From contig CP076101.2 of assembly GCA_015256915.3 (NCBI GenBank), positions 150,001 through 182,000 of the forward strand: a stretch of DNA of 32,000 bases, written 5' to 3'. The notes beneath the pieces were generated by a model. It did not search any database, had not been told where the DNA came from, and saw nothing but the letters and a program-made list of their open reading frames with translations. The stretch's first letter is position 1. Each line of letters begins with the position of its first letter. Below are positions 1-32,000 of this stretch, piece after piece. The position numbers and the translations under genes were made by a program. The stretch comes from Candidatus Saccharimonas sp. (GTDB lineage Bacteria; Patescibacteriota; Saccharimonadia; Saccharimonadales; Saccharimonadaceae).

Positions 1-459
1 GGTATTCAGGGCATTGCTGGAGTTGGTATACCTCAAACTCTAAGCTTAAATAATGGCATTCTTTCGCTTTCTCATGGGGGTGGAAGTATAGCGTTGCCAA
101 ATAATAATCTTGGTGCTTACTCTGTATTTCGAATGACTTCTGCTGATACTTCAAATGTTTTCGCTTCCGGAAGACTTGCACGAGAATTTGACGCTAATCG
201 AAACTACATGATAATCAATAACGCAACAGGTCAAGGCTTTATTCACGTTGATTTCTGGGCGAGTTCGGTTTCTGATAGTAAGCAAATTCTAAGCCTACCA
301 GCCAATGCTCCTACACCAAAAGAACTTTCTGAAGTCCAGTTGTTCGATGGTGGTAGTGTTTGGATTGTGCCGGGTGCTAAAAATGTACAGATTCAAGGTC
401 TTTCACCAAATAGGCGATATGTTAATAACATTCCAGTAATGGTTGAGCCTATCAAATAA
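1..459 (+). CDS. 3' end of a larger CDS entering from the left edge; collagen-like (G-X-Y) / tail-fibre-like repeat protein with a ~120 aa C-terminal globular domain
   Basis: Frame 1 is open from nt 1 (GIQGIAGVGIPQTLSLNNGILSLSHGGGSIAL...) and runs into the listed 94..459 ORF. Stop TAA at 457-459, followed by a hairpin terminator. The product call is by resemblance to tail-fibre/BclA-like proteins only. Confidence 0.55.
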   Translation, partial: GIQGIAGVGIPQTLSLNNGILSLSHGGGSIALPNNNLGAYSVFRMTSADTSNVFASGRLAREFDANRNYMIINNATGQGFIHVDFWASSVSDSKQILSLPANAPTPKELSEVQLFDGGSVWIVPGAKNVQIQGLSPNRRYVNNIPVMVEPIK

Positions 460-466
460 TATAAAA

Positions 467-493
467 AAGAGCGTCTAAAAAGGCGTTCTTTTT
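467..493 (+). terminator. intrinsic terminator
   Basis: aagagcgtct-aaaa-aggcgttctt forms a 10 bp stem (2 G-U pairs), followed by TTT. Confidence 0.65.
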
Positions 494-521
494 AAAGGTT
501 ATGGTTTTTTTAAAAAAAATA

Positions 522-535
522 TGATATAATATAAT
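522..535 (+). promoter_or_regulatory. extended -10 promoter of parA, (near-)leaderless
   Basis: TGaTATAAT at 522-530, with an overlapping second TATAAT at 530-535. The ATG at 540 lies only 4-9 nt downstream and there is no SD. Confidence 0.5.
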
Positions 536-539
536 TATT

Positions 540-1310
540 ATGAAGGTAATTTCGATAACCAATCAAAAGGGAGGAGTCGGCAAAACAACCAGCGCTATTA
601 ATATTGCTTATTTTATCGCAAAAAAGGGTTTTCGAACGCTTCTTGTAGATTTTGACCCACAAGGAAATGCAACTAGCGGTCTTGGTATTGACAAGAATAA
701 TCTTGATTTTACTATGGCAGATGTAGTTTCTGGTGAAAAGCAGTTAGGTGAAATCATTATTGAAACAGAATTTTCGAAATTAAAAATTGCACCAAGTACA
801 CCGATTTTAGCTAATGCTGAAGTTGAGCTCGCGTCAGCAAAAGGTCGATTTACTCGATTGAAAGATGCTTTAAAATCTGTCGAAGCCGATTTTGACTATG
901 TTATTTTAGATTCTCCACCAAGTTTGAGTCTATTGACTGTGAATGGTTTTATTGCTAGCGATTATTTAATACTACCAGTTCAGGCTGAATTTTATGCGAT
1001 GGAAGGCCTTGGCCAGCTTCTTGAAAGCATGAAGCTTGTGAAAAAGGGGATGAATCCAAACCTTGAGCTTCTTGGGGTTCTTCCAACAATGGTGGATTCT
1101 CGCACAACTTTGGGTGGGCAAGTCCTTGAAGAAATTAAAAAATTCTTTCCAGATAAGATTTTTTCGAATGCAATTCCGCGGAATATTCGTCTTGCAGAAG
1201 CTCCAAGTCATGGTGTTCCTATTGGTGTTTATGATAGGTTTAGTAAGGGGGCTCGTGCTTATAAAGCAGTTTCGAAAGAGATTATTCAGCGTATAGAAGG
1301 GAGCAAATAA
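540..1310 (+). CDS. parA: ParA/Soj chromosome-partitioning ATPase
   Basis: Deviant Walker A KGGVGKTT near the N-terminus. Has the DFDPQGN and LDSPPS motifs typical of ParA/MinD ATPases. 256 aa. Confidence 0.93.
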   Translation: MKVISITNQKGGVGKTTSAINIAYFIAKKGFRTLLVDFDPQGNATSGLGIDKNNLDFTMADVVSGEKQLGEIIIETEFSKLKIAPSTPILANAEVELASAKGRFTRLKDALKSVEADFDYVILDSPPSLSLLTVNGFIASDYLILPVQAEFYAMEGLGQLLESMKLVKKGMNPNLELLGVLPTMVDSRTTLGGQVLEEIKKFFPDKIFSNAIPRNIRLAEAPSHGVPIGVYDRFSKGARAYKAVSKEIIQRIEGSK

Positions 1311-2194
1311 TGGCAAAAAAAGGACTTGGTCGTGGATTCTCTTCTTTGATTCCAACCGAGATGATTATTGATGAAAAAATCGATTCAGAATTGGGTTTAG
1401 AATATGATAAAAGCCAACTAAAAGAACTAAAAATTAGTGATATTTCGCCTGATCCAGAGCAACCTCGCCGACACTTCAATAAGGAAAAGCTTGAAGAACT
1501 CGTGAACTCAATTAGAATTCATGGTGTTTTACAACCGATTGTAGTCGTTCGAAAAAACTCTAAGTTTTTAATTGTTGCTGGTGAGAGGCGTTATCGCGCC
1601 TCAAAGCTCGCGGGGCTAGAAAGGGTTCCTGCAGTTGTTCGTGAGCTTTCTGACCAGAACCGCCTCGAATTAAGTTTGATTGAAAATATTCAGCGCGATA
1701 ATTTAAATGTTCTTGAAATGGCTGAAGCCTATTTAAAACTTCGTGAACAATTTAATTTAACGGCAAAGGAAATTGGTGAACGCGTTGGTGGAAGGAGCGA
1801 AAGTGCAGTTTTAAATACCTTGCGCTTATTAAAACTTCCACAAATTGTTAAAGACTATATCATTTCTGGCAAACTAAAAGAAGGCCAAGCGCGCCCACTT
1901 TTAAAGATTGATGAGGAAACTATCAAAAAAATTCTACCAAAAATTATTGAAGAAAATTGGAGCTCACGTAAAATTGAACAATTCTTGGTGAATTATAAAA
2001 AGCAGATTGAAGAGTCTAAAAAAGTTGAACCTAAAAAAGTGAACAATCCTTTCGAAAAAACAGTTAAGCATATTTCGAAAAAGCTGAGTGCAGATGTAGA
2101 TATTAAAACTTCTGCAAGAGGTTCAGGAAAGATCGTTATAAAATTTAAAAGTGAAGAAGAATTAAAGCGACTTGAGAAAATTCTTTCAAAATAA
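1310..2194 (+). CDS. parB: ParB/Spo0J partition protein
   Basis: ParB box LIVAGERRYRAS and an HTH region (LTAKEIGERVGGRSESAVLNTLRLLKLP). The start overlaps the parA stop (TAATG). Confidence 0.93.
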   Translation: MAKKGLGRGFSSLIPTEMIIDEKIDSELGLEYDKSQLKELKISDISPDPEQPRRHFNKEKLEELVNSIRIHGVLQPIVVVRKNSKFLIVAGERRYRASKLAGLERVPAVVRELSDQNRLELSLIENIQRDNLNVLEMAEAYLKLREQFNLTAKEIGERVGGRSESAVLNTLRLLKLPQIVKDYIISGKLKEGQARPLLKIDEETIKKILPKIIEENWSSRKIEQFLVNYKKQIEESKKVEPKKVNNPFEKTVKHISKKLSADVDIKTSARGSGKIVIKFKSEEELKRLEKILSK

Positions 2195-2228: not shown

Positions 2229-2846
2229 TTAATAGTTCTGAGAATATTCAAAATTTCGAATTTTGTTAAAAGGAAAGATTCGGAAGGCAACAGGACCAAC
2301 AATTTTATATAGCGGAACGGTACCAAGACCACTTCGGGAGTCATACGAATTATTTCCCTCGCGATTATCACCTGAAACGAATATTTCATTTTCTGGAACA
2401 GTCCATTCTCCATCATGACTTGTATACTTTTTTGGTTCATTGTTAAAATTATCATCTGGGCTAAAACCGTCAGGATGCTTATCGTTGTAAACTGTTAATT
2501 TTCCTTTTTCAACTTTTACTTTTTCACCAGCAAAGGCGATCACGCGTTTAATGATATATTGATCTTTCATCCCGTCGATAAACTGTGGGTTTTCGAAAAC
2601 AATAATCTCACCACGTTTTGGTATAAATTTTGTGTTCGTAAAATTTGCCCAAGTTAAGGGTAAGCGATTTATAATGGCTTTATCGCCGTCTTTAAAAGTT
2701 GGTTCCATGCTCGAGCCGACGATTGTGAAGCTTTGAAAAATAAAAGTATTAATAAAGATTGTTCCTAAAGTTACACAAAAAAAGAAAACAAAAATCCCGA
2801 AAGTGTCGGCTATTCGAGGATGCCGTTGCCAAAAATTACTCTTCAT
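2229..2846 (-). CDS. lepB: signal peptidase I (S26)
   Basis: N-terminal TM segment, catalytic Ser box GSSMEPTF, Lys box YIIKRVIAFAGEKV, and box E GDNREGNNSYDSR. Confidence 0.9.
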   Translation of the reverse strand: MKSNFWQRHPRIADTFGIFVFFFCVTLGTIFINTFIFQSFTIVGSSMEPTFKDGDKAIINRLPLTWANFTNTKFIPKRGEIIVFENPQFIDGMKDQYIIKRVIAFAGEKVKVEKGKLTVYNDKHPDGFSPDDNFNNEPKKYTSHDGEWTVPENEIFVSGDNREGNNSYDSRSGLGTVPLYKIVGPVAFRIFPFNKIRNFEYSQNY

Positions 2847-3711: not shown

Positions 3712-4869
3712 ATGAATTTTCAAAAATATTTTAAAAAGCCAAAAAGTCAATTTTTAATAGCCATAATTATGGTGGTGGTTGTATTTTGTATAATTATTTT
3801 AGCTCAAATTATATCAAAAAGTAATTTTAATAAGAATAAAACTGGGTCTGCAAACTTTAACTTTTCGGCAAGCGATAAAGCTTCGAATTTTGCGAATCAA
3901 ATGGATTCTAATTCGATTGAGTCGGTTGCGAATAGGGTTTCGCAAAGTGTTGTTTCTATTGTTAGCAAAAATCAAAAAAGTTCAAGATTCTTTTATTCAA
4001 CAGAAGATTCTGCAAGCGCAGGAACGGGAATTATTATTAGTGAAAATGGCTATATCTTAACGAACAAGCACGTTATTGAAAAATCTTCTGAAATCTTAGT
4101 TGTTACTAATAATGGCGATTCTTATGAAAACGTTAGAGTGGTTATGGTCGACCCAATGAGTGATATTGCGATTTTAAAGATTTCGAACGCAAAAGGATTG
4201 AAAGCTGCCGAGCTTGGAGATTCGAAGAAAATAAATATCGGACAGCAAGTGATTGCGATCGGAAATGCTTTGGGCGAATATGACGGTACTGTCACAAGTG
4301 GCATTATTTCTGGAATTGGTCGTACAGTTGAGGCTTCTAGCGAAGACGGTTCTTCGAGAGAAGTTTTGACCGATATGATTCAAACAGACGCGGCAATCAA
4401 TAGTGGAAATTCTGGTGGTCCTTTAGTGAATGCACAAGGACAGGTAATTGGAATTAATACTGCAGTAGCCTCTAAAGCTCAAAGCATTGGTTTTGCAATA
4501 CCGATATCTTCAGTAAAGGGTATCTTAAAATCTATTAGTAAAGGCAAGGAACCGAAACGAGCTTATCTTGGAGCGAGTTATATATCAATTAATCAGCAAA
4601 TTAGAAAAAAATATAATCTTGATGTTTCGAAAGGCGCTTTAGTTAAGTCGAGAAAAGGCAATGCTATTGTCTATGGTAGCCCTGCGCAAAAAGCTGGTTT
4701 AAAAGACGGAGACATAATCACAAAAATTGATGGTGTTGAGGTTTCTAAAAATTCCAGCATTAGTTCTTTAATCGGTGAAAAGTCCGTTGGTGATATTATT
4801 GAAATTTCTTATATTCGAGACGGTAGAGAAAAATCTACTCGCGCAACTCTTGAAGAATATCATAAATAA
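3712..4869 (+). CDS. htrA: HtrA/DegP-family serine protease (S1C) with C-terminal PDZ domain
   Basis: N-terminal TM anchor. Catalytic triad contexts are TNKHV, DIAILK and GNSGGPL. PDZ signature GSPAQKAGLKDGDIITKIDG. Confidence 0.9.
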   Translation: MNFQKYFKKPKSQFLIAIIMVVVVFCIIILAQIISKSNFNKNKTGSANFNFSASDKASNFANQMDSNSIESVANRVSQSVVSIVSKNQKSSRFFYSTEDSASAGTGIIISENGYILTNKHVIEKSSEILVVTNNGDSYENVRVVMVDPMSDIAILKISNAKGLKAAELGDSKKINIGQQVIAIGNALGEYDGTVTSGIISGIGRTVEASSEDGSSREVLTDMIQTDAAINSGNSGGPLVNAQGQVIGINTAVASKAQSIGFAIPISSVKGILKSISKGKEPKRAYLGASYISINQQIRKKYNLDVSKGALVKSRKGNAIVYGSPAQKAGLKDGDIITKIDGVEVSKNSSISSLIGEKSVGDIIEISYIRDGREKSTRATLEEYHK

Positions 4870-4898
4870 AAATAACCCCTTGTTGGGTTATTTTTTTT
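4870..4898. terminator. bidirectional intrinsic terminator (htrA / prmC convergent)
   Basis: AATAACCC-cttgtt-GGGTTATT followed by T8. It overlaps the last codons and stop of prmC. The arms are identical to the terminator at 2195. Confidence 0.75.
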
Positions 4899-5721
4899 CG
4901 AAAACAATTGTGTAATTTTCTGAATAAGTTTTTGAGAAACCACATTTTTTGGCGTAATTCTCAATTTCCTCAAATTGAGATGGGTCGGCTTCAAGAATAA
5001 TTTTTTGTAATTTTGGTAAATCTTGAGCTTGAAAAATTAAATTAAAGATTGCCTCTAATCCGTTTTTCTGAGCATAAAGTGCAATTTGTGGTTCATAATG
5101 TAGCTCATTATTCTTTTCGAAATTTACCCAATCTTTATTAACATAAGGCAGATTTGCTGTAATTATTGTTATTTTTGAAAGAATTTCTGACGGTATTTGG
5201 CTTAAAAGGTCACTTTCGAAAAGCTCAATTTTACTTTCAAGGATTTTTATAGCGTTTAGATTCGCCACAGAAAGCGCTTGAAGTGAAATGTCGCTCGCAA
5301 AAAAATCAATATTTTCGCCAAGCTCAGCTTTTAGAGTGATTGGAATTATTCCAGAACCTGTACCAACATCTAAAATTTTATCACCTTTTTTGGCAATTTT
5401 TTTAGTAATTTCAATTAAGGTTTCAGTTTCTGGGCGAGGAACTAGTACATTTTCGTTCACGAAAAAAGTTCTTCCAAAAAACTCCTTTTCTCGAAAAATA
5501 TAAGCGAGCGGAATCCTCTTCAGGCGCTTATTTAAAAAATTATTTGCGTGAAAAACCAGAGTTTTCGAAAGCTTTTTTTGCGGATTTGCATGTAAAAAAG
5601 TTCGTTCAACTTTTAAAACGTTTGCTAAAATTAGCTCAGCATCAAGTTGTGAACTCTCAATTTTAGCATTTCTAAGTTTTTGAGCTGATTTTTTCAGCCA
5701 AGATTCAATAGTCTCTCGCAT
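4888..5721 (-). CDS. prmC: release-factor glutamine N5-methyltransferase PrmC/HemK
   Basis: SAM-binding motif ILDVGTGSGI. Sits immediately downstream of prfA, the conserved pairing. The catalytic tetrapeptide reads NLPY rather than NPPY. Confidence 0.85.
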   Translation of the reverse strand: MRETIESWLKKSAQKLRNAKIESSQLDAELILANVLKVERTFLHANPQKKLSKTLVFHANNFLNKRLKRIPLAYIFREKEFFGRTFFVNENVLVPRPETETLIEITKKIAKKGDKILDVGTGSGIIPITLKAELGENIDFFASDISLQALSVANLNAIKILESKIELFESDLLSQIPSEILSKITIITANLPYVNKDWVNFEKNNELHYEPQIALYAQKNGLEAIFNLIFQAQDLPKLQKIILEADPSQFEEIENYAKKCGFSKTYSENYTIVFEKK

Positions 5722-5724
5722 AAA

Positions 5725-6804
5725 TTAGTTATTTTCTGAAGCGTTAGCGGCCAAGAATTCAAGTTCGGCAGCTTGCAAGTGCTCAACAATATCTGAAATT
5801 TGCCCATTCATTGCGGCTGGAATATTGCTTCTTGAAAAGCCAATCCGGTGGTCGGTGATGCGATCTTGCGGGAAGTTGTAAGTTCGAATCTTTTCGGAGC
5901 GGTCACCAGAGCCAATTAGGCTGCGGCGTTCGGCTGTAAGTTTGGCGTTTTCTTCATCAATTTTAGCTTGAAGTAGGCGCGCACGCAAAATTCCAAGGGC
6001 TTTTTCCTTGTTCTTAATTTGTGATTTTTCATCTTGGTTTGTAACCACCATGCCAGTTGGAATGTGGGTGATTCGCACAGCAGAATCGGTCGTGTTCACA
6101 CTCTGACCGCCATGACCACCCGAACGATAGACATCAATTCGTAAATCATTCGGATTGATCTCAATATCAGCCTCTTCGGCCTCAGGCAAAACTGCTACTG
6201 TTACAGTTGAAGTGTGGATTCGCCCTTGCGATTCAGTAGCCGGAATGCGTTGAACTCGATGAACGCCACTTTCGAATTTTAATTTTGAGTAAGGAGCATC
6301 GCCTTTTACCCCAAAAACAACTTCTTTATAGCCGCCAGCATCGTTTGCAGATTCGCTCAAAAGTTCGGTCTTTAAGCCATTTTGTTCGCAATATCGCAGA
6401 TACATGCGGTAAAGTTCGCTCGCAAAAAGGGAAGCTTCGTCGCCACCGGCTCCTGCACGGATTTCAACAATCACGTTCTTCTCATCATTCGGATCTTTAG
6501 GGAGAAGCATTTCGAAAAGCTCCTGTTCGAGATTAGCAAGCTTTTCTTCGCTTTCAGCGATTTCAATTTTGGCAAGTTCTGCAAGTTCACCAGTCTCAAG
6601 ACTAGCAAGTTCACGCGCTTCTTCGATATTTTTTTCAAGATTTTCGCGCAATTCACCACGCTCGATAATTTTTTCGAGTTCAGTAAATCGCTTATTTTTG
6701 GTAGAAAAATCAGGCGAAGAATAAGCGTTTGGTTCGCTCAAAAAAGCCTGAATTTCTTCGCGCTCAGTTTTAAGTTTCTCAAGATTTAAATCAATTTTTG
6801 GCAT
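5725..6804 (-). CDS. prfA: peptide chain release factor 1
   Basis: GGQ motif ([24 protein letters not shown]) and RF1-type PAT tripeptide ([14 protein letters not shown]). Start placed at MPKIDLN (6804), because the upstream Met lies inside the promoter. Confidence 0.93.
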
Positions 6805-6878: not shown

Positions 6879-7541
6879 ATGAAAATAACTTCTTGGCGAG
6901 AATTTATCGAAAATGAAGCCGAAAAGCCATATTTTAAAAAGTTGTGGCAAAAAGTTGAACGTGAACGCATTTCGAAAGATATTTTTCCTGCAAGAGAAGA
7001 TATTTTTTCTTGTTTTAAAGAATGCCCACTTAAAAAAACTAAGGTTGTGATTATTGGTCAAGATCCTTATCATGGAGAAGGGCAGGCACATGGAATGAGT
7101 TTTTCGGTCAAAAAAGGTGTTAGAATTCCGCCAAGTTTGCAAAATATTTATAAAGAACTTCAAAGTGATCTAGGAATTGAGCCGGCCAGCGATGGTTTTT
7201 TAGAGTCTTGGGCCGAGCAAGGTGTTTTACTGCTGAATACTTCTTTTAGTGTTGAAAAAGGCAAGCCAGCAAGTCATGCAAATTTTGGCTGGATGGAGTT
7301 TTCTGAACATGTTTTAGATTTTTTAAATGATTTCGAAAAGCCGTTAGTTTTTATTTTGTGGGGAGCACATGCACAAAAAGTTGGTGCCCGAATAACTAAT
7401 TCAAAACACCTTAAAATTGAGAGTGCACACCCTTCGCCATTTTCAGCGCGGCGTGGATTTTTTGGCTCAAAGCCTTTTTCTAAAGTGAATAAATTTTTAG
7501 AACAAAATGGTGAAACTCCAATTGATTGGCGTGTAAAATAA
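6879..7541 (+). CDS. ung: uracil-DNA glycosylase, family 1
   Basis: Motifs [18 protein letters not shown] and HPSPFSA. 220 aa. Confidence 0.93.
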
Positions 7542-9908: not shown

Positions 9909-9931
9909 TTCTTAAATTCGAAAGGATAAAA

Positions 9932-24187: not shown

Positions 24188-25366
24188 ATGGAGATTTTGA
24201 ATTTAGTTTTTGGGATAATTATTGGTCTAATTTCGCTAACTTTTTTAGTTGCAATACATGAACTTGGTCACGCGCTTGCGGCCAAGAAAAACGGTGTAAA
24301 ACTTAAAGAATACGCAATCGGTTTTCCGCCAAGAATTAAAAGTTTTAGAGCAAAAACTAACAAAATTCTACCAAAAAACACAAAAATTTCGATCGGTGCG
24401 ATTCCATTAGGTGGTTTTGTTCGGTTGAAAGGGGAACACGATTCAGATTCTAAAAAAGGTGATTATGGTGCGGCAAGTTTTTGGGCAAAAACTCAAATTT
24501 TATTTGCCGGTGTTGCAATGAATTGGCTAGTTGCTTTTGTTATTTTTACGATCCTGTCGATTTTTGGAATGCCAAAGTTAATTTCGAATCAGTTTTATTT
24601 AGGTTCTGATGTTAGAATTTCTGGTGGTGGCGTGCAGGTTTCACAGATTTCGAATGATTCGCCTGCACAAAAAGCTGGCTTGCAAAAAAATGATATAATT
24701 TTGGAATTTAATGGTAAAAAAGTTGATAATTCTACCACCGTTAAAGAAGATTTGCGTAGTAATGCTGGCAAAAGTGTGAATTTAAAAATTCAGCGTGGCG
24801 ATCATTTTTTTTCAAAAGATGTTAAGCTAAACGAAAATAATAAGAATGGTTTTTTGGGCGCATTTTTGACTGATGGGATGCAAAAAATTCATGCAACTTG
24901 GAGCGCACCGATTGTTGGGCTTGGCACAACAATTCAATTTACGGGTGAAACTTTTAAAGGTGTTGGCGAACTTTTTATGAACTTTTTTGGCGGGGTTTTC
25001 GAAAAGCTAATTCCGAATCAGCAATCACAGCAGAAAGCAAATTCTCAACTTTCAAAAGCAGGTGAAAGTGTCTCTGGCCCAATTTTAGTGATTGGTGAAA
25101 TCTTCCCAAACATCATCTCGATGGGGCCTGATATGGTCTTAATGCTAACTGCAATTATTTCAATTAGTTTGGCGTGCATGAATATTCTGCCAATTCCTGT
25201 ACTTGATGGTGGTCGTTGGCTAATGACTTTCATTTTTCGAATTTTGCTCAAAAAGCCACTTTCAAAAGAGAATGAAGAGAATATCAACGGTTGGAGTTTT
25301 ATATTTTTGATGGGGCTTTCACTTTTAATTATTTTTCTAGATTTTACAAAGATTTTTAGAGGTTAA
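24188..25366 (+). CDS. rseP: site-2 (RIP) zinc metalloprotease RseP/RasP, M50 family with PDZ domain
   Basis: HELGHAL in the first TM segment. PDZ signature SPAQKAGLQKNDIILEFNG. C-terminal NILPIPVLDGG motif. Confidence 0.9.
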   Translation: MEILNLVFGIIIGLISLTFLVAIHELGHALAAKKNGVKLKEYAIGFPPRIKSFRAKTNKILPKNTKISIGAIPLGGFVRLKGEHDSDSKKGDYGAASFWAKTQILFAGVAMNWLVAFVIFTILSIFGMPKLISNQFYLGSDVRISGGGVQVSQISNDSPAQKAGLQKNDIILEFNGKKVDNSTTVKEDLRSNAGKSVNLKIQRGDHFFSKDVKLNENNKNGFLGAFLTDGMQKIHATWSAPIVGLGTTIQFTGETFKGVGELFMNFFGGVFEKLIPNQQSQQKANSQLSKAGESVSGPILVIGEIFPNIISMGPDMVLMLTAIISISLACMNILPIPVLDGGRWLMTFIFRILLKKPLSKENEENINGWSFIFLMGLSLLIIFLDFTKIFRG

Positions 25367-25368: not shown

Positions 25369-26175
25369 ATGAAGAATAAATTTAAAAATATATTTTTAAA
25401 ACTTCAAAAAAAGAATGATGAAATGCTTTCAAAAAAGCCTTTAAAAATTATTTTTTGGACAATTTTTCCAATTTTGTCATATTTTGCGGCAAGTTATTTT
25501 TCAGCTGTAATAATTCGACTTTCACTCGCTTTGATTTTTTGGAATAACGATGCAGGCTATCAAAGTGCGGCTTCAAACACGATTACTACTACAATTTATT
25601 CAGCATTATTTCTTGGATTAATGCTTGCGATGGTATATTTCATCCCGACTAAACTTTTCAAGCAGAAGATTTCGAAAGATGATATCGCTTTAAATGGTGT
25701 GATTACTTGGCAAGATTTAGGTTTAGCAATTTTAGGTTTTATAGCCTCGATGATTATTTCTGGGATTTTGTTAGAATTTTTGCCTAATATTCTTCATTTT
25801 GATAAATTGCAAGTTCAAGATTTGGTTTTTCAACGCAGCGGGATGATTCATTCTTGGCAATTTTTGCTAGCTTTTATTTCAATTGTTATTATTGCGCCGG
25901 TTTTTGAAGAATTGATTTTTCGCGGAATAATTTATGGTCAACTTCGAAAAGTGAATATTCCACTTGCAATTTTTATAACGAGTTTACTTTTTGGATTTGT
26001 ACATTTTCAAATGAATGTTGGCGTAACGGTATTTGTGATGAGCGTTGTGATGTGTCTTATTCGCGAAAAATGGACACAAACAATTTGGTCGGGGATTGTA
26101 ATTCATATGATTAAAAATGGGATTGCTTTCTTTCTGCTTTACGTTTTGCAAACTATTCAATTCTTTCAAGCTTAG
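25369..26175 (+). CDS. CPBP (CAAX prenyl protease-like) intramembrane protease family protein
   Basis: Polytopic membrane protein with EELIFRG and FGFVH motifs. Confidence 0.8.
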   Translation: MKNKFKNIFLKLQKKNDEMLSKKPLKIIFWTIFPILSYFAASYFSAVIIRLSLALIFWNNDAGYQSAASNTITTTIYSALFLGLMLAMVYFIPTKLFKQKISKDDIALNGVITWQDLGLAILGFIASMIISGILLEFLPNILHFDKLQVQDLVFQRSGMIHSWQFLLAFISIVIIAPVFEELIFRGIIYGQLRKVNIPLAIFITSLLFGFVHFQMNVGVTVFVMSVVMCLIREKWTQTIWSGIVIHMIKNGIAFFLLYVLQTIQFFQA

Positions 26176-26236: not shown

Positions 26237-26698
26237 ATGAAACAAGAATTTAATATTACGAAAATAGGAAAAAAAGAACTCGAAGCTGAACTAGAGCTTT
26301 TGATTTCGCAGCGTAAAGAAATTTCAGAAGAAGTTGCTACTGCGCGTGATTTTGGTGATTTGCGTGAAAATTCAGAATACGATGCCGCTCGCAAAAAACA
26401 AGCTTTAGCAGAATCTCGAATTATGGAAATTGAAAATATTTTGCAAAATGCTGTAATTATTGGCGGTGGTGAAAAGGGCGTTGTATCTCTTGGTAATCAA
26501 GTTAGCTTAAAAAACCTAGAAAACGGTAAAGAAGTAAAATATACAATGGTTGGTGCGGTTGAGGCGAACCCCCTTGAGGGTAAGATTTCGAATGAATCAC
26601 CAATCGGCCAACAGATCATGGGCAAAAAGCTCGGCGAAGAAGTAGATATTACGACACCAAAAGGTGTAATCAAATACGAAATTACAGAAATTAACTAA
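26237..26698 (+). CDS. greA: transcription elongation factor GreA
   Basis: GDLRENSEYDAARKKQ motif at the coiled-coil tip. 153 aa. Confidence 0.92.
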   Translation: MKQEFNITKIGKKELEAELELLISQRKEISEEVATARDFGDLRENSEYDAARKKQALAESRIMEIENILQNAVIIGGGEKGVVSLGNQVSLKNLENGKEVKYTMVGAVEANPLEGKISNESPIGQQIMGKKLGEEVDITTPKGVIKYEITEIN

Positions 26699-26705: not shown

Positions 26706-26738
26706 AGCTCGGTTGGCCAATTCAGCCGAGTTTTATTT
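26706..26738 (+). terminator. intrinsic terminator
   Basis: CTCGGTT-ggccaattc-AGCCGAG followed by TTTTATTTT. Confidence 0.65.
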
Positions 26739-26754
26739 TCGAAAAGGAGATTTT

Positions 26755-28005
26755 ATGCGATTATCAAAATTATATACAAAAACGAGTAAAACAGTTCCAT
26801 CTGGTGAAGAAGCTAAGAATGCGCAACTTTTAATTAAAGCCGGATTTGTTCATAAAGAAATGGCAGGCGCTTACGACTACTTACCACTTGGTTTTAAAGT
26901 GCTAGAAAACATTAAAAAAATTGTGCGTGAAGAGCTTGAAAAAATCGACGCAAATGAGATTTTAATGACAACGCTTCAACGCCGTGAAATTTGGGAACGC
27001 ACAACTCGCTGGAGCGATGATGTTGTGGATGTTTGGTTTAAAACCAATCTGAAAGATAATACAGAGGTTGGATTAGGTTGGAGCCATGAAGAACCAATTG
27101 TTGAAATGCTTAAGAATCATATTCAATCTTATAAAGATTTGCCAGTTTCGGTTTTTCAATTTCAAAATAAAATGCGAAACGAGCTCCGTGCAAAAAGTGG
27201 AATTATGCGTGGTCGCGAATTTTTGATGAAAGATTTGTATTCAATTCACGAAACTAAAGAAGATTTAGAAGCATATTATGCCAAAGTTTCAAAAGCTTAT
27301 GAACGAATTTTCGAACGCCTCGGTTTAGGCAAAGATACTTTTGTGACATTTGCTAGTGGCGGGGCATTTACAAAATTCAGCCACGAATTTCAAACGATTT
27401 GCGATGCTGGTGAAGATTATGTTTATTTAAAGCGTGATGGTGAAAAAACTCTTGCTTTTAACGAAGAAATCTTAGACCAAGCAATTGAAGCTGGCGAAAT
27501 TAGTTCGAAAGAAGGATTAGAAAAGGTTAAAACTGCAGAAGTCGGAAATATCTTCAACTTTGGCACGCAAAAAACTGATGAAATGGGGCTTTATTTTACT
27601 GACAAAAATGGCGAACGAAAATCAGCTTGGATGGGATCTTACGGAATTGGAATCACTCGTGTAATGGGTGTTATTGCTGAAAAATTTAGTGATGAAAAAG
27701 GTTTAATTTGGCCAGAAAATATTGCTCCAGCTAAAATTTACCTTGTGCAAATTGGTGAAAAATCGCAAGAATTAGCAGAAGAAATTTATAATGAATTTTC
27801 AAAAAAAGGAATTGAGGTTCTATTTGATGACCGCAATCTTCGCCCAGGCCAAAAATTTGCCGATGCTGAATTAATGGGTATTCCATATCGCTTGACAGTT
27901 TCTGATCGTTTGATTGAAAGTGGAAAATTCGAAGTTGTAACGCGCGTAAATGGTGAAGTCGAATTGCTTTCAAGAGAAGAACTTTTTGAAAAATTTGTAA
28001 AATAA
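26755..28005 (+). CDS. proS: prolyl-tRNA synthetase, bacterial-like N-terminus but lacking the INS editing insertion
   Basis: Start set at MRLSKLYTKTSK after an AAAGGAGA SD. Motif 2 is MRNELRAKSGIMRGREFLMKD and motif 3 is GSYGIGITRVMG. Only ~130 aa separate these motifs. 416 aa in total. Confidence 0.88.
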   Translation: MRLSKLYTKTSKTVPSGEEAKNAQLLIKAGFVHKEMAGAYDYLPLGFKVLENIKKIVREELEKIDANEILMTTLQRREIWERTTRWSDDVVDVWFKTNLKDNTEVGLGWSHEEPIVEMLKNHIQSYKDLPVSVFQFQNKMRNELRAKSGIMRGREFLMKDLYSIHETKEDLEAYYAKVSKAYERIFERLGLGKDTFVTFASGGAFTKFSHEFQTICDAGEDYVYLKRDGEKTLAFNEEILDQAIEAGEISSKEGLEKVKTAEVGNIFNFGTQKTDEMGLYFTDKNGERKSAWMGSYGIGITRVMGVIAEKFSDEKGLIWPENIAPAKIYLVQIGEKSQELAEEIYNEFSKKGIEVLFDDRNLRPGQKFADAELMGIPYRLTVSDRLIESGKFEVVTRVNGEVELLSREELFEKFVK

Positions 28006-28049: not shown

Positions 28050-29039
28050 ATGAAAATTATTGCTTATAGTGTACGAAAAGATGAGCTCCAATATTTCGAA
28101 AAATTCGCGGAGCAGTTTGGTATTGAATATGCTACAACTCCAAAAGATTTAAACGCTGAAACTGTAAAATTGGCTGAAGGTTTTGACGCGGTTTCATCTT
28201 ATACTTCAAGCGAAGAACTCAACGATGTTTGGGAAACTCTTTCGAAAATGGGAATTTCTTATTTTACTGTTCGAACGGCCGGGTTTGATGGAATTGATAT
28301 TGAAAAAGCTAAAAGCTTCGGTATTAAAATTTCAAACGTACCACAATATTCGCCAAGCGCAATTGCTGAATTTGCTGTTGCATTGGCACTAGCAACAATT
28401 CGAAAAATCCCACTTTGTCTTTCGCGCGCCAAAAATCAGAACTTTTCGGTAGATAATTTGATGGGTCGCGAACTTAATACAATGACCATTGGAATTATCG
28501 GCGTGGGTCATATTGGCTTAACAACCGCGAAGGCTTTTAAAGCTTTTGGCGCAAAAATAATTGCTTATGATACTTTCGAAAATGATGCTGCTCGTGAAAT
28601 TTTGGAATATAAAAGTTTAGATGAAGTTTTCGCAGAAAGCGATTTGATTTCACTTCATATTCCTTTAACACCAGAAAATCGCCACATTATCAACGCAGAA
28701 AGTATTTCGAAAATGAAAGATGGAGTAGTCATTATTAATACTGCGCGTGGTGGACACATTAACTCCAAAGATTTGCGAGATGCTTTGGTGAGCGGAAAAG
28801 TTGCAGCAGCCGGCCTTGATGTTTTTGAGCATGAAAAGAATCTAATTCGAAAAGATTTGAGTGGAAAAATTATTAAGGATGCCGTTTATCGCGATCTAGC
28901 GAACTTTCCGAATGTTATTATTACTCCACACGTTGCGTTTAATACAGATGTTGCCGTGCAAAATATGGTAAAAATGTCAACTGAGAATTTAATTAATTTT
29001 AAAAATGCAGGAACAACCGACAATGAAATTACAAAATAA
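28050..29039 (+). CDS. ldhA: D-isomer-specific 2-hydroxyacid dehydrogenase (D-lactate dehydrogenase-like)
   Basis: NAD-binding GIIGVGHIGL and catalytic-region pattern ARGG...GLDVFEHE...TPHVAFNT. 329 aa. Confidence 0.85.
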   Translation: MKIIAYSVRKDELQYFEKFAEQFGIEYATTPKDLNAETVKLAEGFDAVSSYTSSEELNDVWETLSKMGISYFTVRTAGFDGIDIEKAKSFGIKISNVPQYSPSAIAEFAVALALATIRKIPLCLSRAKNQNFSVDNLMGRELNTMTIGIIGVGHIGLTTAKAFKAFGAKIIAYDTFENDAAREILEYKSLDEVFAESDLISLHIPLTPENRHIINAESISKMKDGVVIINTARGGHINSKDLRDALVSGKVAAAGLDVFEHEKNLIRKDLSGKIIKDAVYRDLANFPNVIITPHVAFNTDVAVQNMVKMSTENLINFKNAGTTDNEITK

Positions 29040-30897
29040 TTTTATTCGAAAAATCACCAAAATTATGCCACTATTTTTAGTGGCAGTTTTGGCTTTTAGT
29101 TTTACTTTTGGCAGTTTTTCAAATCAAGCTTTTGCCAGAAGACGGCGGAATCGTGATGCTGAAGAAGCTGAGCTGCGAATAAAAAATAATAATATTATTT
29201 TTTCGAAGTTTGATGCAAAATATAATTTTAGCGCCGACCAAAAAGGAAATACGAATCTTGAAATTACTGAAAATATTTCGACATATTTTATCCGTGATGG
29301 TATAAATCACGGAATCGAGCGTGCAATTCCGCGGTTTTTTAATGGTAAAACTATTTTTGATGGTAAAGCTGAAATTGAAATGGATGGCAAAAAAGTTTCA
29401 TATTCAACTTATGAAAGTGACGGAAATATCGTATTTCGAATTGGCGAAAGCGGAAGTTTCGTTTATGGAAGACATAAATATCAGCTAAAATATCGGTTTA
29501 AAAATCTACTGTTAACAGATGGTAGTGTACAAAAAATGATTATGAACACCAATGGAACTCAGTGGAAACGACCTTTTAATGAAGTTATTGCAACAGTTAA
29601 TTTAGATTCATCAGTTTTGAAAGAATTTAATGGTACGGTGAGATGTTTTGCTGGAATGCAAGGCTCAACTGAAGAGTGCAATACTTTTGAGCGTAAGTCG
29701 GAAGAGGGAGTTTTTAAGTTCTCGCAAAAAGATGTTCAAGCTGGCGAGAATTTAACATTTGAAATTGACTTTAATAGTAAATTTGCTCAACCAGAAGCGA
29801 GCGGTATTGACGTAAATACAATAATTTTTGGAATTTTGGCGTTAATTTTGGCGGTAATTACACTATTCTTTGCTGTTCGGGTTATTTTAAAATATAATTC
29901 AGTTAAGAGAGAAAACAAGGTTTCGAAAGCGGTTGTTCCGCAATATTTGCCGCCAAAAATTGAAGAATTAGATATTTTGGATGCGGGGAATTTAGTAAAA
30001 TCAAATAAAAAACTTACTGCTGCAATGCTATTTTTTGCGGTGAATGGCAATATTCAGATTGTTGAAAAAACTTCGAAGGGCTTTTTGGGTGGCAAGAAAA
30101 AGAGCTATACAATTCAGCTATTAAATCGAGATAATTTGAATCAAGATATGCTTTCATTATTAAATTCATTTTTTAGAAGTAAAACTGAGATTGATTTATC
30201 TAAACAAATGAGTAGTACGCAAGCCTCTGATATTTCTTCGAAAGTTTTAAACTCCGCATTTAGCGGAACTTCTTACTATGTTCAAGAAAAGCCAGCAGTG
30301 TTCAGTAATTCTCAGTTTTTTGCTGGCGGAGTGACTATTTTATCTGTGGTATTGTTTTTTGCGAGCGGAATAATAGTTAATTTTATTTCAACTATTTCAC
30401 CTTGGTTTACGGTAGCTATATGTTCTTTCATTGCAGCCGTTATGCTCTCAATTTTAATATTTACTATTTCAAATATAAAAATTCCATCTCGAAAAGGTTT
30501 TGAAGCAAAAAATTATCTTGAAGGTTTAAAGCTTTATATTTCAGTAGCAGAAAGCGAACGGTTAAAATTTTCGCAAAGTTTGCAGAATTCTGAAAGATTC
30601 CAAACTGAATTTGGTGGCTCTCGCGTAAAACTTTATGAAAAACTTTTACCTTGGGCAGCGTTGTTCGGGCTAGAGAAGTCTTGGGCGAAGGTGCTTGAAT
30701 TGCAATTTCAAGATGAAAATTATCTACCAGATTGGTATGTTGGCTCAACAGCATTTAATGCTATGGTGTTTTCTAATAGCTTGAATAGCTTTAATAGTGC
30801 AATGAACAGTTATTCTGCGCCAAGTTCGAGCAGTTCTGGTGGAGGTGGTGGATTCTCTGGCGGCGGCGCTGGCGGCGGCGGTGGTGGTGGTTGGTAA
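29023..30897 (+). CDS. DUF2207-type membrane protein with Gly-rich C-terminal tail
   Basis: N-terminal signal/anchor, an extracellular domain, several TM segments, and a C-terminal SSSSGGGGGFSGGGAGGGGGGGW tail as in DUF2207 proteins. The start is uncertain (ATG at 29005, 29023 or 29062). It overlaps the ldhA 3' end. Confidence 0.75.
   Translation: MKLQNNFIRKITKIMPLFLVAVLAFSFTFGSFSNQAFARRRRNRDAEEAELRIKNNNIIFSKFDAKYNFSADQKGNTNLEITENISTYFIRDGINHGIERAIPRFFNGKTIFDGKAEIEMDGKKVSYSTYESDGNIVFRIGESGSFVYGRHKYQLKYRFKNLLLTDGSVQKMIMNTNGTQWKRPFNEVIATVNLDSSVLKEFNGTVRCFAGMQGSTEECNTFERKSEEGVFKFSQKDVQAGENLTFEIDFNSKFAQPEASGIDVNTIIFGILALILAVITLFFAVRVILKYNSVKRENKVSKAVVPQYLPPKIEELDILDAGNLVKSNKKLTAAMLFFAVNGNIQIVEKTSKGFLGGKKKSYTIQLLNRDNLNQDMLSLLNSFFRSKTEIDLSKQMSSTQASDISSKVLNSAFSGTSYYVQEKPAVFSNSQFFAGGVTILSVVLFFASGIIVNFISTISPWFTVAICSFIAAVMLSILIFTISNIKIPSRKGFEAKNYLEGLKLYISVAESERLKFSQSLQNSERFQTEFGGSRVKLYEKLLPWAALFGLEKSWAKVLELQFQDENYLPDWYVGSTAFNAMVFSNSLNSFNSAMNSYSAPSSSSSGGGGGFSGGGAGGGGGGGW
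30838..30894 (+). repeat. GGN codon run (poly-Gly tail)
   Basis: ggtggaggtggtggattctctggcggcggcgctggcggcggcggtggtggtggt. Confidence 0.8.
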
Positions 30898-30928
30898 AAC
30901 CGCACCTTTCTATAAAGCAGATTTTCGA

Positions 30929-30963
30929 AAAGTAGCTTGCAAAAAATGTAAGCTACTTTTTTG
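30929..30963 (+). terminator. intrinsic terminator
   Basis: AAGTAGCTT-gcaaaaaatgt-AAGCTACTT followed by T6. Confidence 0.75.
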
Positions 30964-31021
30964 TAGTAAAAAGCATAACTATATTGATTTTTTTGCTTTT
31001 TTGTGATTAAATATAAGCATT

Positions 31022-32000
31022 ATGAAAAGATTTTGGGTTGGGTTGAAAAATAAAAAAGTTTTGATTATTTTTACTTTAATTTGTAGTTTTTTTGGGCTTA
31101 GTATTTTTTTGAATAACAATGTTTATGCTGAGAATATTGGTCAGGGAGGACAATCATTCAGAACTCAATATGAAGGTGCTTCTAAGTCTGGATGCGATTA
31201 TTTTCAAACTTATGGACCTACTGGTCAAAGACAGGAAAGTGATAGTAGTAGAGCTTGTAAAAAAGCTATTGAGGAAGGCGCATCCGGAAATGGTAAGAAA
31301 GTTACTAACGCACAAGAATGGGTTCTTCTAAGATGTGAAGCATATGGAACTCGAGGTGTAAGTATTAGTGATGGATATAGTGGAGCTACAAAAAATTCAA
31401 AAGAATGCCAAGAGGAATCTATAAAGCAGGGTTTTTCTAAGAAAGACAGTGTTGCTACTGATAAGGAAGTTACTAAAGATGCTTCAAAATCTTCATCAGA
31501 CAATAAGCCTGGTGAAGGTGATAAAGATAAAGATAAAGATAAAGATAATAAAGACAAAAATTCTTGCGCTATTGAATGGATTGGCTGGATTGTTTGCCCG
31601 ATTGTTCGTGGTTCAACTGGTGTTGTTGTTGGTCTATATAATTTTATGCAAGCTAATTTCTTAAATATTAAATCTGATCAACTTTTTTCAAATTCTGGGA
31701 AGGGCCAAGAGGCATTTAAACACTGGGTAACATTTAGAGATATTGCAAATATATTTTTTGTGATTATGATTGCGATAATAATTTTCTCGCAAGTAACTGG
31801 TGTAGGGATTTCTAACTACGGTATTAAGAAGATGCTTCCAAAAATTATTATTTATGCAATTTTAGTGAATATTTCTTGGTATATCGTTGTGATTGCTATT
31901 GATATTTCGAATATTGTTGGTAGTACTTTATTTAAGTGGCTATCAAATGATGGAAATTGGAACTTTTCTAGTGACGTCCAGAAAGAAACATCTCCTGTTG
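31022..32000 (+). CDS. 5' part of a CDS running off the right edge (not in the ORF track): signal peptide, secreted Cys-containing domain, (KD)n linker, polytopic membrane domain
   Basis: My own translation from the ATG at 31022 has no stop to nt 32000. It reads MKRFWVGLKNKKVLIIFTLICSFFGLSIFLNNNVYA|ENIG...GDKDKDKDKDNKDKNSCAIEWIGWIVCPIV...IFFVIMIAIIIFSQVTG...IIIYAILVNISWYIVVIAIDI... The listed ORFs 31119..31331 and 31449..31664 are off-frame. Confidence 0.7.
   Translation, partial: MKRFWVGLKNKKVLIIFTLICSFFGLSIFLNNNVYAENIGQGGQSFRTQYEGASKSGCDYFQTYGPTGQRQESDSSRACKKAIEEGASGNGKKVTNAQEWVLLRCEAYGTRGVSISDGYSGATKNSKECQEESIKQGFSKKDSVATDKEVTKDASKSSSDNKPGEGDKDKDKDKDNKDKNSCAIEWIGWIVCPIVRGSTGVVVGLYNFMQANFLNIKSDQLFSNSGKGQEAFKHWVTFRDIANIFFVIMIAIIIFSQVTGVGISNYGIKKMLPKIIIYAILVNISWYIVVIAIDISNIVGSTLFKWLSNDGNWNFSSDVQKETSPV
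31520..31549 (+). repeat. hexanucleotide tandem repeat (GATAAA)x4 plus one imperfect unit
   Basis: gataaagataaagataaagataaagataat, encoding the DKDKDKDKDN linker. Confidence 0.85.

Follow-up and report, generated by a model that had tools for sequence, protein, structure and literature searches.

TTTCGAAA, a HIP1-like palindrome with a TTCGAA core iterated in a subclade of Saccharibacteria clade G6

The closest analogues of the element described here are the highly iterated palindrome HIP1 of cyanobacteria and the DNA-uptake sequences. HIP1 (GCGATCGC) is hyper-abundant, occurs in all reading frames and in spacers, is conserved beyond expectation, and is linked to methyltransferases that have its core as their recognition site (PMC4390886, PMC5861425). 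As described by Elhai, its one-off variants deviate at the outer positions, and the inner hexamer is the methyltransferase site (PMC4390886). Natural transformation is up to 100-fold higher with methylated HIP1 (10.1101/2024.09.10.611283), and the abundance of HIP1 co-varies with type IV secretion system proteins, which the authors linked to DNA transfer (10.64898/2026.06.24.733823). Another example is Campylobacter jejuni, which takes up only methylated DNA and in which RAATTY is methylated by CtsM (PMC8468864). Here, we analysed a 32,000-bp stretch of Saccharibacteria DNA (the window, GC content 35.3%) that is rich in the hexamer TTCGAA and in the 8-base palindrome TTTCGAAA, which contains it. 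A literature search found no link between TTCGAA and Saccharibacteria, and papers on genomes of clade G6, to which the window belongs, are silent on motifs and methylation.

By exact count, the window contains 89 copies of TTCGAA, including 43 copies of TTTCGAAA; a first-pass annotation, made by reading the sequence, had come close with about 86 and 43. The motif is thus spaced at one per ~360–750 bases, with the 6-mer at 2.8 per kb and the 8-mer at 1.3 per kb (one per 744 bp). Base composition alone (order 0) predicts 10.9 copies of TTCGAA and 1.14 of TTTCGAAA, in agreement with the earlier estimate of about 11 and 1, dinucleotide frequencies (order 1) predict 25.0 and 4.75, and an order 3 Markov model predicts 48.8 and 7.7. 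The excess of TTTCGAAA is 38-fold by composition and 6–9-fold by Markov models. The comparison of 6-mer and 8-mer counts with the order 3 model, which the first-pass annotation had proposed, placed both motifs at the top: at orders 1 and 3, no 6-mer was more strongly over-represented than TTCGAA, and at order 3 no 8-mer more strongly than TTTCGAAA. Outside the 8 bases, the information content of the flanks was near 0. The spacing between sites in the 32-kb window was slightly evener than random (coefficient of variation 0.84 vs. 0.98), which is not significant (P ~0.055).

Compared with the dinucleotide model, the observed/expected (O/E) ratio was 8.7 for the full 8-mer, 3.3 for variants at the outermost positions, and 0.7–1.0 for variants at the six inner positions. 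Clearly, the hexamer TTCGAA tolerates no change, and the T and A on either side of it are favoured without being essential. The idea, raised in the first-pass annotation, of a mutational or repair bias that retains CpG mainly within TCGA was not borne out. The O/E ratio of CpG in the window was 1.21, i.e., CpG was not depleted, and TCGA outside TTCGAA was not enriched (174 observed vs. 169 expected at order 2), being at expectation after trinucleotides were accounted for. Moreover, the C-to-T product of the 8-mer, TTTTGAAA/TTTCAAAA, was in slight excess (42 observed vs. 28.6 expected), and TTTGAA/TTCAAA, with an O/E ratio of 0.74–0.9, was no lower than other one-off neighbours. Very-short-patch repair by Vsr at the Dcm sites (CCWGG) of E. 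coli illustrates that a repair bias can raise the frequency of a methyltransferase site. However, it predicts a deficit of the T:G-derived neighbour, which is not depleted here, and the known methylation of TTCGAA is on adenine. A Vsr-type T:G repair drive was rejected, as the predicted TTTGAA/TTCAAA deficit was not seen and TTTTGAAA/TTTCAAAA was in excess.

In the coding DNA of the window, there are 79 6-mers and 35 8-mers, carried by genes of both strands, and the 79 sites use all three frames (TTC-GAA 22, xTT-CGA-Axx 20, xxT-TCG-AAx 37). Shuffling of synonymous codons within each gene yielded 24.7±4.2 6-mers and 6.0±2.3 8-mers (z ~12.8 for both), and codon permutation yielded 19.7±4.2 and 2.7±1.7, respectively. 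A shuffle preserving codon pairs yielded 68.9±3.0 and 18.1±2.9 (z 3.4 and 5.9). The first-pass annotation would have taken an O/E ratio near 1 under this last model as evidence against the enrichment; the 6-mer does come down to ~1.15, but the 8-mer remains twofold above expectation. Most of the 6-mer excess is absorbed because the pairs TTC-GAA, xTT-CGA, CGA-Axx, xxT-TCG and TCG-AAx are the motif itself; the model keeps the motif by construction, and therefore the ratio of ~1.15 is no refutation. Among F-E dipeptides, 22 of 45 are encoded by TTC-GAA vs. 7.5 expected, TTC being otherwise the minor Phe codon. In the T_AA context, TCG makes up 45% of Ser codons vs. 15% overall, and in the TT_A context CGA makes up 61% of Arg codons vs. 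28% overall. The earlier impression that TCG serves mainly to create the motif was correct as to this contextual preference, but not as to "mainly", since 38 of the 102 TCG codons lie in the motif.

Intergenic DNA, with a GC content of 27%, contains 9 sites in 2,311 bp vs. 0.75–1.1 expected (~8–12-fold), i.e., 3.9 sites per kb vs. 2.7 per kb in coding DNA. Orthologous genes of motif-poor relatives of similar GC content contain 0.2–0.6 sites per kb vs. 2.8 in the window. These intergenic and cross-species controls settle the question against a by-product of coding. An artefact of composition or codon usage was rejected on the basis of Markov orders 0–3, synonymous and codon shuffles, intergenic counts, and motif-poor orthologues. 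As the first-pass annotation had proposed, the motif is tied to no single amino-acid pair and acts at the DNA level, which is supported by the three frames, both strands and the intergenic enrichment.

The window carries parA-parB, prfA-prmC, ung, rpsB-tsf, serS, secA, xseAB, frr, rseP, greA, proS, DUF2207 and trbL-like genes. Judging from the relatives of its SerRS, the window belongs to Saccharibacteria clade G6 (Nanogingivalaceae) and groups with genomes from human oral and gut metagenomes, consistent with the earlier suggestion that the source is an epibiont of the candidate phyla radiation. Motif density was computed in SerRS loci of at least 9 kb, from 80 species retrieved (L-numbers denote loci of relatives):

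Window clade: SerRS identity 93–97%, GC 35–36%, 2.4–3.1 sites per kb
L015 and L022: SerRS identity 83–84%, GC 42%, 3.6 sites per kb
L017: SerRS identity 81%, 0.56 sites per kb
L018, Ca. Nanogingivalis gingivitcus: SerRS identity 77%, 0.23 sites per kb
L020: 0 sites per kb

The enrichment, whose conservation the first-pass annotation had suggested checking, is thus common to relatives down to ~83% SerRS identity (the window clade, L015 and L022) and absent from the sister G6 lineages L017, L018 and L020. In a single-gene tree, the motif-rich lineages came together, with L017, whose placement is uncertain, nested among them, and L018 and L020 outside. The flanks of the window (9.5 kb upstream and 7 kb downstream) contain 2.5–3.6 sites per kb. 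Pattern scans for pairs of TTTCGAAA were run in a viral and a metagenome collection to sample motif-rich genomes elsewhere. Matches in the viral collection were essentially random, as were most of the 120 matches in the metagenome collection, which included two useful contigs: L317 (dnaE, eno, gltX), with 28 sites in 12.8 kb, and L225 (clp, rpoB), with 15 sites in 4.5 kb. Both are unlinked to the window, and their tetranucleotide signature lies among G6 loci, so that their lineage is assigned from composition only. By extrapolation, a genome of ~0.66 Mb (PMC8354532) would hold roughly 1,800 copies of TTCGAA. Taken together, these results make it very likely that a G6 subclade carries TTTCGAAA, with TTCGAA as its strict core, as a highly iterated palindrome that is genome-wide and specific to this lineage.

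The rest of the phylum shows the reverse. In 52 loci (L023–L080, 0.99 Mb), TTCGAA occurred 166 times vs. 353 (order 1) or 293 (order 3) expected; it was below expectation in 49 of the 52 loci and was the fifth most avoided palindromic hexamer, the other four being GGATCC, GGCGCC, GGGCCC and TTTAAA. This suggests that TTCGAA-specific restriction is common around Saccharibacteria. In the window itself, GATC (47 vs. 86–95 expected) and CATG (42 vs. 60–91) are both depleted by a factor of ~2, and NGATCN and NCATGN hexamers are rare without exception, which is ordinary restriction-site avoidance in the same TTCGAA-rich genome. The earlier remark that the enrichment of TTCGAA runs opposite to the avoidance of restriction sites is in line with both observations.

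Two further contigs deserve mention. The co-assembled contig L016 (1–15216) is a mosaic, in which segments 95–98% identical to L022 are motif-rich and segments 73–80% identical to it contain 0–1 site per kb, which points either to genuine recombination of motif-rich with motif-poor lineages or to a chimera of the assembly. A metagenome contig of 64% GC (L262, 1–8220) contains 16 copies of TTCGAA, all in 7-bp tandem repeats (TTCGAAN)n at four places, and these are unrelated to the TTCGAA enrichment described here.

At the positions of the motif in the window, motif-poor relatives show between one and three base changes, which are of every kind and affect each of the six positions. The substitutions that gave rise to the motif were often non-synonymous (e.g., GCT-AAA vs. 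TCG-AAA) and included transversions, and conversions of near-matches were sometimes parallel in different lineages. Clearly, the copies were made singly, by point substitution at sites already resembling the motif, in any frame and in spacers. A mobile or dispersed repeat of the repetitive extragenic palindrome or miniature inverted-repeat type was rejected, as the flanks are not conserved and point substitutions account for all differences at orthologous positions. Codons under the motif are less conserved than others: compared with motif-poor orthologues, amino-acid identity is 0.64 under the motif vs. 0.80 elsewhere in the same genes. Hypervariable or orphan genes contain 1.4 sites per kb vs. 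3.2 in the remaining genes (binomial z ~−2.6, by arithmetic on the per-gene table).

Once made, the copies were retained more often than control 6-mers, which were either frame-matched or CG-containing (the relatives compared are not independent of each other):

L001: nucleotide identity 91.6%, sites kept 44/50, frame-matched controls 0.65, CG-containing controls 0.55, z ~3.4
L012: nucleotide identity 83.6%, sites kept 29/45, frame-matched controls 0.37, CG-containing controls 0.26, z ~3.8
L022: nucleotide identity 76%, sites kept 9/22, frame-matched controls 0.21, CG-containing controls 0.22

In motif-poor relatives, retention was at or below that of control 6-mers. Surviving cores kept the outer T and A too, and there was no clear difference in retention between 8-mer sites and 6-mer-only sites. 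Losses within the window clade were mostly changes of CG to TG or CA. As the copies are made by substitution and long kept in any frame and in spacers, the force acts on the DNA sequence itself, not on protein. The findings indicate that maintenance is lineage-specific, at the DNA level and non-neutral; the steps proposed below go beyond this by inference.

The individual sites are listed below as exact matches in window coordinates. The motif is palindromic and has no strand; (-) marks a gene on the minus strand, and the last item is the codon frame. The intergenic coordinates of the first-pass annotation proved accurate to 1–2 bases (7927, 9166/9177, 16091, 24174, 26738 and 30924), and its peptide readings hold (F-R-K at 16327, F-E at 16585 and 24998).

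128..133, TTCGAA, 5'-cut open reading frame (ORF), xTT-CGA-Axx
631..636, TTCGAA, parA, xTT-CGA-Axx
772..779, TTTCGAAA, parA, xxT-TCG-AAx
1163..1168, TTCGAA, parA, xxT-TCG-AAx
1270..1277, TTTCGAAA, parA, xxT-TCG-AAx
1548..1553, TTCGAA, parB, xTT-CGA-Axx
2050..2057, TTTCGAAA, parB, TTC-GAA
2073..2080, TTTCGAAA, parB, xxT-TCG-AAx
2255..2260, TTCGAA, signal peptidase I (-), xTT-CGA-Axx
2591..2598, TTTCGAAA, signal peptidase I (-), TTC-GAA
2939..2946, TTTCGAAA, membrane ORF, xxT-TCG-AAx
3882..3887, TTCGAA, htrA-like, xxT-TCG-AAx
4182..4187, TTCGAA, htrA-like, xxT-TCG-AAx
4221..4226, TTCGAA, htrA-like, xxT-TCG-AAx
4625..4632, TTTCGAAA, htrA-like, xxT-TCG-AAx
4896..4903, TTTCGAAA, prmC (-), TTC-GAA
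5115..5122, TTTCGAAA, prmC (-), TTC-GAA
5214..5221, TTTCGAAA, prmC (-), TTC-GAA
5563..5570, TTTCGAAA, prmC (-), xxT-TCG-AAx
5883..5888, TTCGAA, prfA (-), xTT-CGA-Axx
6271..6276, TTCGAA, prfA (-), TTC-GAA
6510..6517, TTTCGAAA, prfA (-), TTC-GAA
6970..6977, TTTCGAAA, ung, xxT-TCG-AAx
7331..7338, TTTCGAAA, ung, TTC-GAA
7926..7933, TTTCGAAA, intergenic, 25 nucleotides (nt) upstream of rpmE (-)
8990..8995, TTCGAA, secreted ORF, TTC-GAA
9165..9172, TTTCGAAA, intergenic, rpsB leader, first of a hairpin-forming pair
9176..9183, TTTCGAAA, intergenic, rpsB leader, second of a hairpin-forming pair
9917..9922, TTCGAA, intergenic between rpsB and tsf, just upstream of the tsf ribosome-binding site
10317..10324, TTTCGAAA, tsf, xxT-TCG-AAx
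11929..11934, TTCGAA, MucBP surface ORF, TTC-GAA
11938..11943, TTCGAA, MucBP surface ORF, TTC-GAA
12830..12835, TTCGAA, hypervariable ORF (-), xTT-CGA-Axx
13407..13414, TTTCGAAA, hypervariable ORF (-), xxT-TCG-AAx
13418..13423, TTCGAA, hypervariable ORF (-), xTT-CGA-Axx
14123..14128, TTCGAA, serS, xTT-CGA-Axx
14265..14270, TTCGAA, serS, xxT-TCG-AAx
14364..14371, TTTCGAAA, serS, TTC-GAA (kept in L022, L015 and L016)
14531..14538, TTTCGAAA, serS, xxT-TCG-AAx
16090..16097, TTTCGAAA, intergenic, just after the hpf stop
16327..16334, TTTCGAAA, ORF, xTT-CGA-Axx (F-R-K)
16584..16591, TTTCGAAA, ORF, TTC-GAA
17485..17492, TTTCGAAA, secA, xxT-TCG-AAx
18121..18128, TTTCGAAA, secA, xxT-TCG-AAx
18569..18574, TTCGAA, secA, xxT-TCG-AAx
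19111..19118, TTTCGAAA, secA, xxT-TCG-AAx
19340..19345, TTCGAA, secA, xxT-TCG-AAx
19400..19405, TTCGAA, secA, xxT-TCG-AAx
19681..19686, TTCGAA, secA, xTT-CGA-Axx
19828..19835, TTTCGAAA, secA, xxT-TCG-AAx
20320..20325, TTCGAA, M16 peptidase, xTT-CGA-Axx
20585..20592, TTTCGAAA, M16 peptidase, TTC-GAA
21216..21221, TTCGAA, M16 peptidase, TTC-GAA
21295..21300, TTCGAA, xseA, TTC-GAA
21648..21655, TTTCGAAA, xseA, TTC-GAA
22170..22175, TTCGAA, xseA, xxT-TCG-AAx
22313..22320, TTTCGAAA, xseA, xxT-TCG-AAx
22518..22525, TTTCGAAA, xseB, xxT-TCG-AAx
22855..22862, TTTCGAAA, intergenic (22607-23091)
23640..23645, TTCGAA, frr, xTT-CGA-Axx
23722..23727, TTCGAA, frr, xxT-TCG-AAx
23946..23951, TTCGAA, frr, xTT-CGA-Axx
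24173..24180, TTTCGAAA, intergenic, 14 nt upstream of the rseP start
24583..24588, TTCGAA, rseP, xxT-TCG-AAx
24649..24654, TTCGAA, rseP, xxT-TCG-AAx
24997..25004, TTTCGAAA, rseP, TTC-GAA
25236..25241, TTCGAA, rseP, xTT-CGA-Axx
25670..25677, TTTCGAAA, CPBP protease, xxT-TCG-AAx
25943..25948, TTCGAA, CPBP protease, xTT-CGA-Axx
26587..26592, TTCGAA, greA, xxT-TCG-AAx
26737..26744, TTTCGAAA, intergenic, directly before the proS AAGGAG ribosome-binding site
27310..27315, TTCGAA, proS, TTC-GAA
27504..27509, TTCGAA, proS, xxT-TCG-AAx
27928..27933, TTCGAA, proS, TTC-GAA
28094..28101, TTTCGAAA, 2-hydroxyacid dehydrogenase, TTC-GAA
28240..28247, TTTCGAAA, 2-hydroxyacid dehydrogenase, xxT-TCG-AAx
28270..28275, TTCGAA, 2-hydroxyacid dehydrogenase, xTT-CGA-Axx
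28399..28404, TTCGAA, 2-hydroxyacid dehydrogenase, xTT-CGA-Axx
28574..28581, TTTCGAAA, 2-hydroxyacid dehydrogenase, TTC-GAA
28705..28712, TTTCGAAA, 2-hydroxyacid dehydrogenase, xxT-TCG-AAx
28846..28851, TTCGAA, 2-hydroxyacid dehydrogenase, xTT-CGA-Axx
29045..29050, TTCGAA, DUF2207, xTT-CGA-Axx
29202..29207, TTCGAA, DUF2207, xxT-TCG-AAx
29435..29440, TTCGAA, DUF2207, xTT-CGA-Axx
29921..29928, TTTCGAAA, DUF2207, xxT-TCG-AAx
30072..30077, TTCGAA, DUF2207, xxT-TCG-AAx
30237..30242, TTCGAA, DUF2207, xxT-TCG-AAx
30923..30930, TTTCGAAA, intergenic, after the DUF2207 stop
31906..31911, TTCGAA, trbL-like ORF (3' cut), xxT-TCG-AAx

The intergenic copies at 9917, 24174 and 26738 lie directly 5' of a ribosome-binding site (TTCGAAAGGA, TTCGAAAGGG, TTCGAAAAGGAG), 14–17 nt before the start codon, which probably reflects where very short spacers tolerate a copy. 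In the 5' leader of rpsB (9148–9197), two copies of TTTCGAAA 3 nt apart pair inside a longer GGGAG...CCCC stem (−16 kcal/mol, z −2.2). This stem is kept in other strains, an A-to-G change in L201 retaining a G-U pair, and the hairpin, which had no Rfam match, may be an S2 autoregulatory leader. It is the sole structural-looking case; a general role of motif pairs as hairpins or terminators was rejected, as pairing is at the chance rate.

Small ORFs flanking serS and frr (12278–13877 (-), 16198–17194 (+) and 23092–23451 (-)) are hypervariable: between strains with 97% SerRS identity, their products show 32–87% amino-acid identity. None occurs outside the window clade, and none gave a Pfam, PADLOC or NCBIfam match. 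In L201 and L202 (18622–19218 in both), an extra gene encoding a 198-aa protein (PF27257, HI_0787_N) lies between the secreted ORF and rpsB, which maps to ~9065–9140 of the window; it is missing in the window, L203 and L204, and neither boundary of the indel carries a copy of the motif. The last ORF of the window (31022–32000) continues in L205 (12973–15480) and encodes an 835-aa TrbL_3 protein, which is part of a type IV secretion or conjugation-like apparatus. Its counterpart in L022 and L015 immediately precedes serS, so that the motif-rich lineages do not share one gene order.

What could maintain such a motif? We tentatively propose, by analogy with the systems introduced above, that TTCGAA is read by a lineage-specific protein, probably in a methylated form, and tags self DNA for transformation; as a whole, this mechanism appears possible, though somewhat short of probable. 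The hexamer would be the recognition site of a protein present in this subclade and missing in its sister lineages. The most plausible reader would be an N6-adenine methyltransferase of TTCGAA (BstBI/AsuII-type) specificity, either orphan or a remnant of a restriction-modification system of the kind avoided by the rest of the phylum. Other bacteria are known to methylate TTCGAA at the N6 position of adenine (PMC4101878; 10.64898/2026.06.24.734251), and Saccharibacteria are naturally transformable via ComEC (PMC10633639), as was shown for clade G1. The tagged sites would mark DNA as self during natural transformation, and fragments with (methylated) copies would be preferentially taken up or recombined through the type IV pilus and ComEC machinery. 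Variants creating a copy would spread and those destroying one would be replaced, a molecular drive possibly reinforced by selection. The same mechanism is now proposed for HIP1 and was shown for RAATTY/CtsM in Campylobacter (10.1101/2024.09.10.611283; PMC8468864). The first-pass annotation had favoured no single explanation and had not mentioned HIP1; of the possibilities it listed, the readings as an uptake signal and as a methyltransferase target are both viable and not mutually exclusive. More doubtful is the specific scenario in which the G6 subclade turned a restriction-modification specificity, avoided elsewhere in the phylum, into a tag by which self DNA is recognised in methylated form during natural transformation.

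Several points weigh against such a self-DNA tag. All unassigned window ORFs were searched with Pfam, PADLOC and NCBIfam, and 10 kb on either side of the window was covered as well; the ~49 kb of this lineage (~8% of the ~0.66-Mb genome) yielded no gene for a methyltransferase, a restriction enzyme or a candidate receptor, so that the cognate methyltransferase gene which the first-pass annotation had suggested looking for did not emerge from this part. No genes of these types were found in ~10 kb each of L015 and L022, whose flanks are differently arranged, and L317 and L225 carry no methyltransferase gene. The prmC gene (4888–5721, -) was rejected as a DNA methyltransferase, as it adjoins prfA and encodes a protein-glutamine methylase. 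Uptake sequences are 9–12 bases long, asymmetric, read by a dedicated receptor (ComP) and often paired as terminators, whereas the motif described here is a 6–8-base palindrome whose pairs (≤30 bp apart) occur in the window at the chance rate (5 vs. 7.1 expected). A tag of 6–8 bases discriminates poorly against foreign DNA; the RAATTY/CtsM case shows, however, that six bases can suffice for a tag that is read in the methylated state. To our knowledge, the targets of orphan methyltransferases (GATC, GANTC) are not normally enriched several-fold, and we know of no cultured member of G6, so that competence is extrapolated from clade G1. Finally, the higher conservation of sites also fits continuous biased repair and hence is no proof of function.

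The hexamer may instead be the target of an orphan methyltransferase with an internal function, transformation being uninvolved and site density being selected for a methyl-directed process that needs a nearby site, such as the choice of strand in mismatch repair (the model of Elhai for HIP1), the timing of replication or the organisation of the chromosome. The palindromic hexamer core with relaxed outer positions, as in HIP1 and CGATCG (PMC4390886), and the conservation of sites would fit such a function, as would the density of the 8-mer (one per 744 bp), which is near the ~1 per kb that Elhai derives for methyl-directed repair. Ordinary avoidance of palindromes elsewhere in the genome makes it likely that the enriched site is protected. 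However, neither a methyltransferase nor a MutH-like gene was seen in the DNA covered, known methyl-directed systems do not have several-fold enriched sites, and the slight evenness of spacing, which would also fit (0.84 vs. 0.98, P ~0.055), is not significant; overall, we consider this explanation rather unlikely. The motif would need no function at all if a lineage-specific enzyme converted near-matches to TTCGAA or preferentially repaired damage in it. Such a neutral by-product would account for the origin of copies from near-matches, sometimes in parallel, for the mild depletion of all inner one-off variants and for amino acids altered to fit the motif, and continual re-creation of sites would mimic conservation. 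Nevertheless, we regard it as unlikely: the only well-understood mechanism, Vsr-type T:G repair, predicts a TTTGAA/TTCAAA deficit at odds with the ratios of 0.74–0.9 and with the 8-mer forms (42 vs. 28.6), the conversions needed include transversions and all six positions, CpG is not otherwise unusual, and comparable conservation of HIP1 was taken as selection by Xu et al. (PMC5861425).

A site of a nucleoid-associated or chromosome-structuring protein, with no methylation involved, was proposed for HIP1 by Xu et al. from its long-range periodicity. Here, a symmetric 8-bp site would suit a dimeric DNA-binding protein, and the graded preference at the outer positions, the conserved positions and the high intergenic density agree with this; yet we know of no candidate protein, the sites of known nucleoid proteins are much scarcer or else degenerate, and the strict six-base core is more enzyme-like than architectural, which together make this explanation quite improbable. 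The weakest reading, a signal in RNA or translation (a codon-pair preference, or the site of an RNA-binding protein or RNase), is highly improbable. As a palindrome, the motif is in every transcript whatever the strand of the gene, the shuffle preserving codon pairs removes most of the 6-mer excess (79 vs. 68.9), several intergenic copies lie just upstream of ribosome-binding sites, and the rpsB-leader pair forms a hairpin. However, that shuffle keeps the motif by construction and still leaves the 8-mer at twice the expectation, the three frames encode unrelated peptides, the intergenic density is above the coding density, and motif-poor relatives encode the same proteins without the motif.

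HIP1 has been a puzzle for ~30 years and was known only from cyanobacteria, and TTTCGAAA is an independent second case, in a very small (~0.66 Mb) and unrelated genome. Since sister lineages lack the motif, a comparison of motif-rich and motif-poor G6 genomes could pinpoint the responsible gene among fewer than 700 genes. Motif density is also a signature of the subclade for metagenome binning, and it exposed the mosaic contig L016. If the motif does mark self DNA, it would bear on gene exchange of uncultured epibionts, the candidate phyla radiation would gain its first signal for uptake or recombination, and HIP-type elements would have their first example beyond the cyanobacteria; (methylated) TTCGAA in constructs would then be a practical lever for the genetics of Saccharibacteria.

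Among known systems, the DNA uptake sequences of Neisseriaceae and the uptake signal sequences of Pasteurellaceae resemble the motif in being short, present at ~1 per kb and lineage-specific as a "dialect" (PMC3630211, PMC2397512, PMC2817400). They likewise occur in all frames, prefer poorly conserved residues, are scarcer in orphan or variable genes and raise the frequency of the peptides they encode, and the phylum of the host is naturally competent, with type IV pili and ComEC. RAATTY of Campylobacter is similarly a short palindromic hexamer, adenine-methylated by an orphan enzyme and used as a self-tag in uptake. It differs in being abundant simply from an AT-rich genome, with no several-fold excess reported, and in that methylation and uptake were demonstrated there and are hypothesised here. 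Restriction-modification systems of BstBI/AsuII specificity share the hexamer, and other Saccharibacteria avoid the site, as a target of restriction would be; in contrast, the site is enriched here, and no such system was found in the DNA covered.

The likeness to HIP1 is the closest. Both are perfect 8-base palindromes with a hexamer core, hyper-abundant in genes (in all frames) and in spacers at a density of ~1 per kb, made by substitution without conservation of flanks, kept in position between relatives beyond matched controls, and present in a clade with exceptions. One-off variants of both deviate at the first or last base (here, O/E 3.3 at outer and 0.7–1.0 at inner positions). The differences concern the sequence, as TTTCGAAA is AT-rich with a CG centre and no GATC, compared with GCGATCGC, and the host, which is an epibiont of Patescibacteria with a ~0.66-Mb genome, the motif being spread over a subclade of one family vs. 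a phylum. The fold-excess is 38-fold by composition and 6–9-fold by Markov models here vs. 15–300-fold for HIP1, and the core methyltransferases of HIP1 are known, whereas no cognate methyltransferase was found here in the DNA covered. As a top-ranked palindrome dispersed over all frames and spacers, with conserved sites and deviations at the outer bases, TTTCGAAA has the features of a HIP-type element; it is HIP-like, not HIP1 proper.

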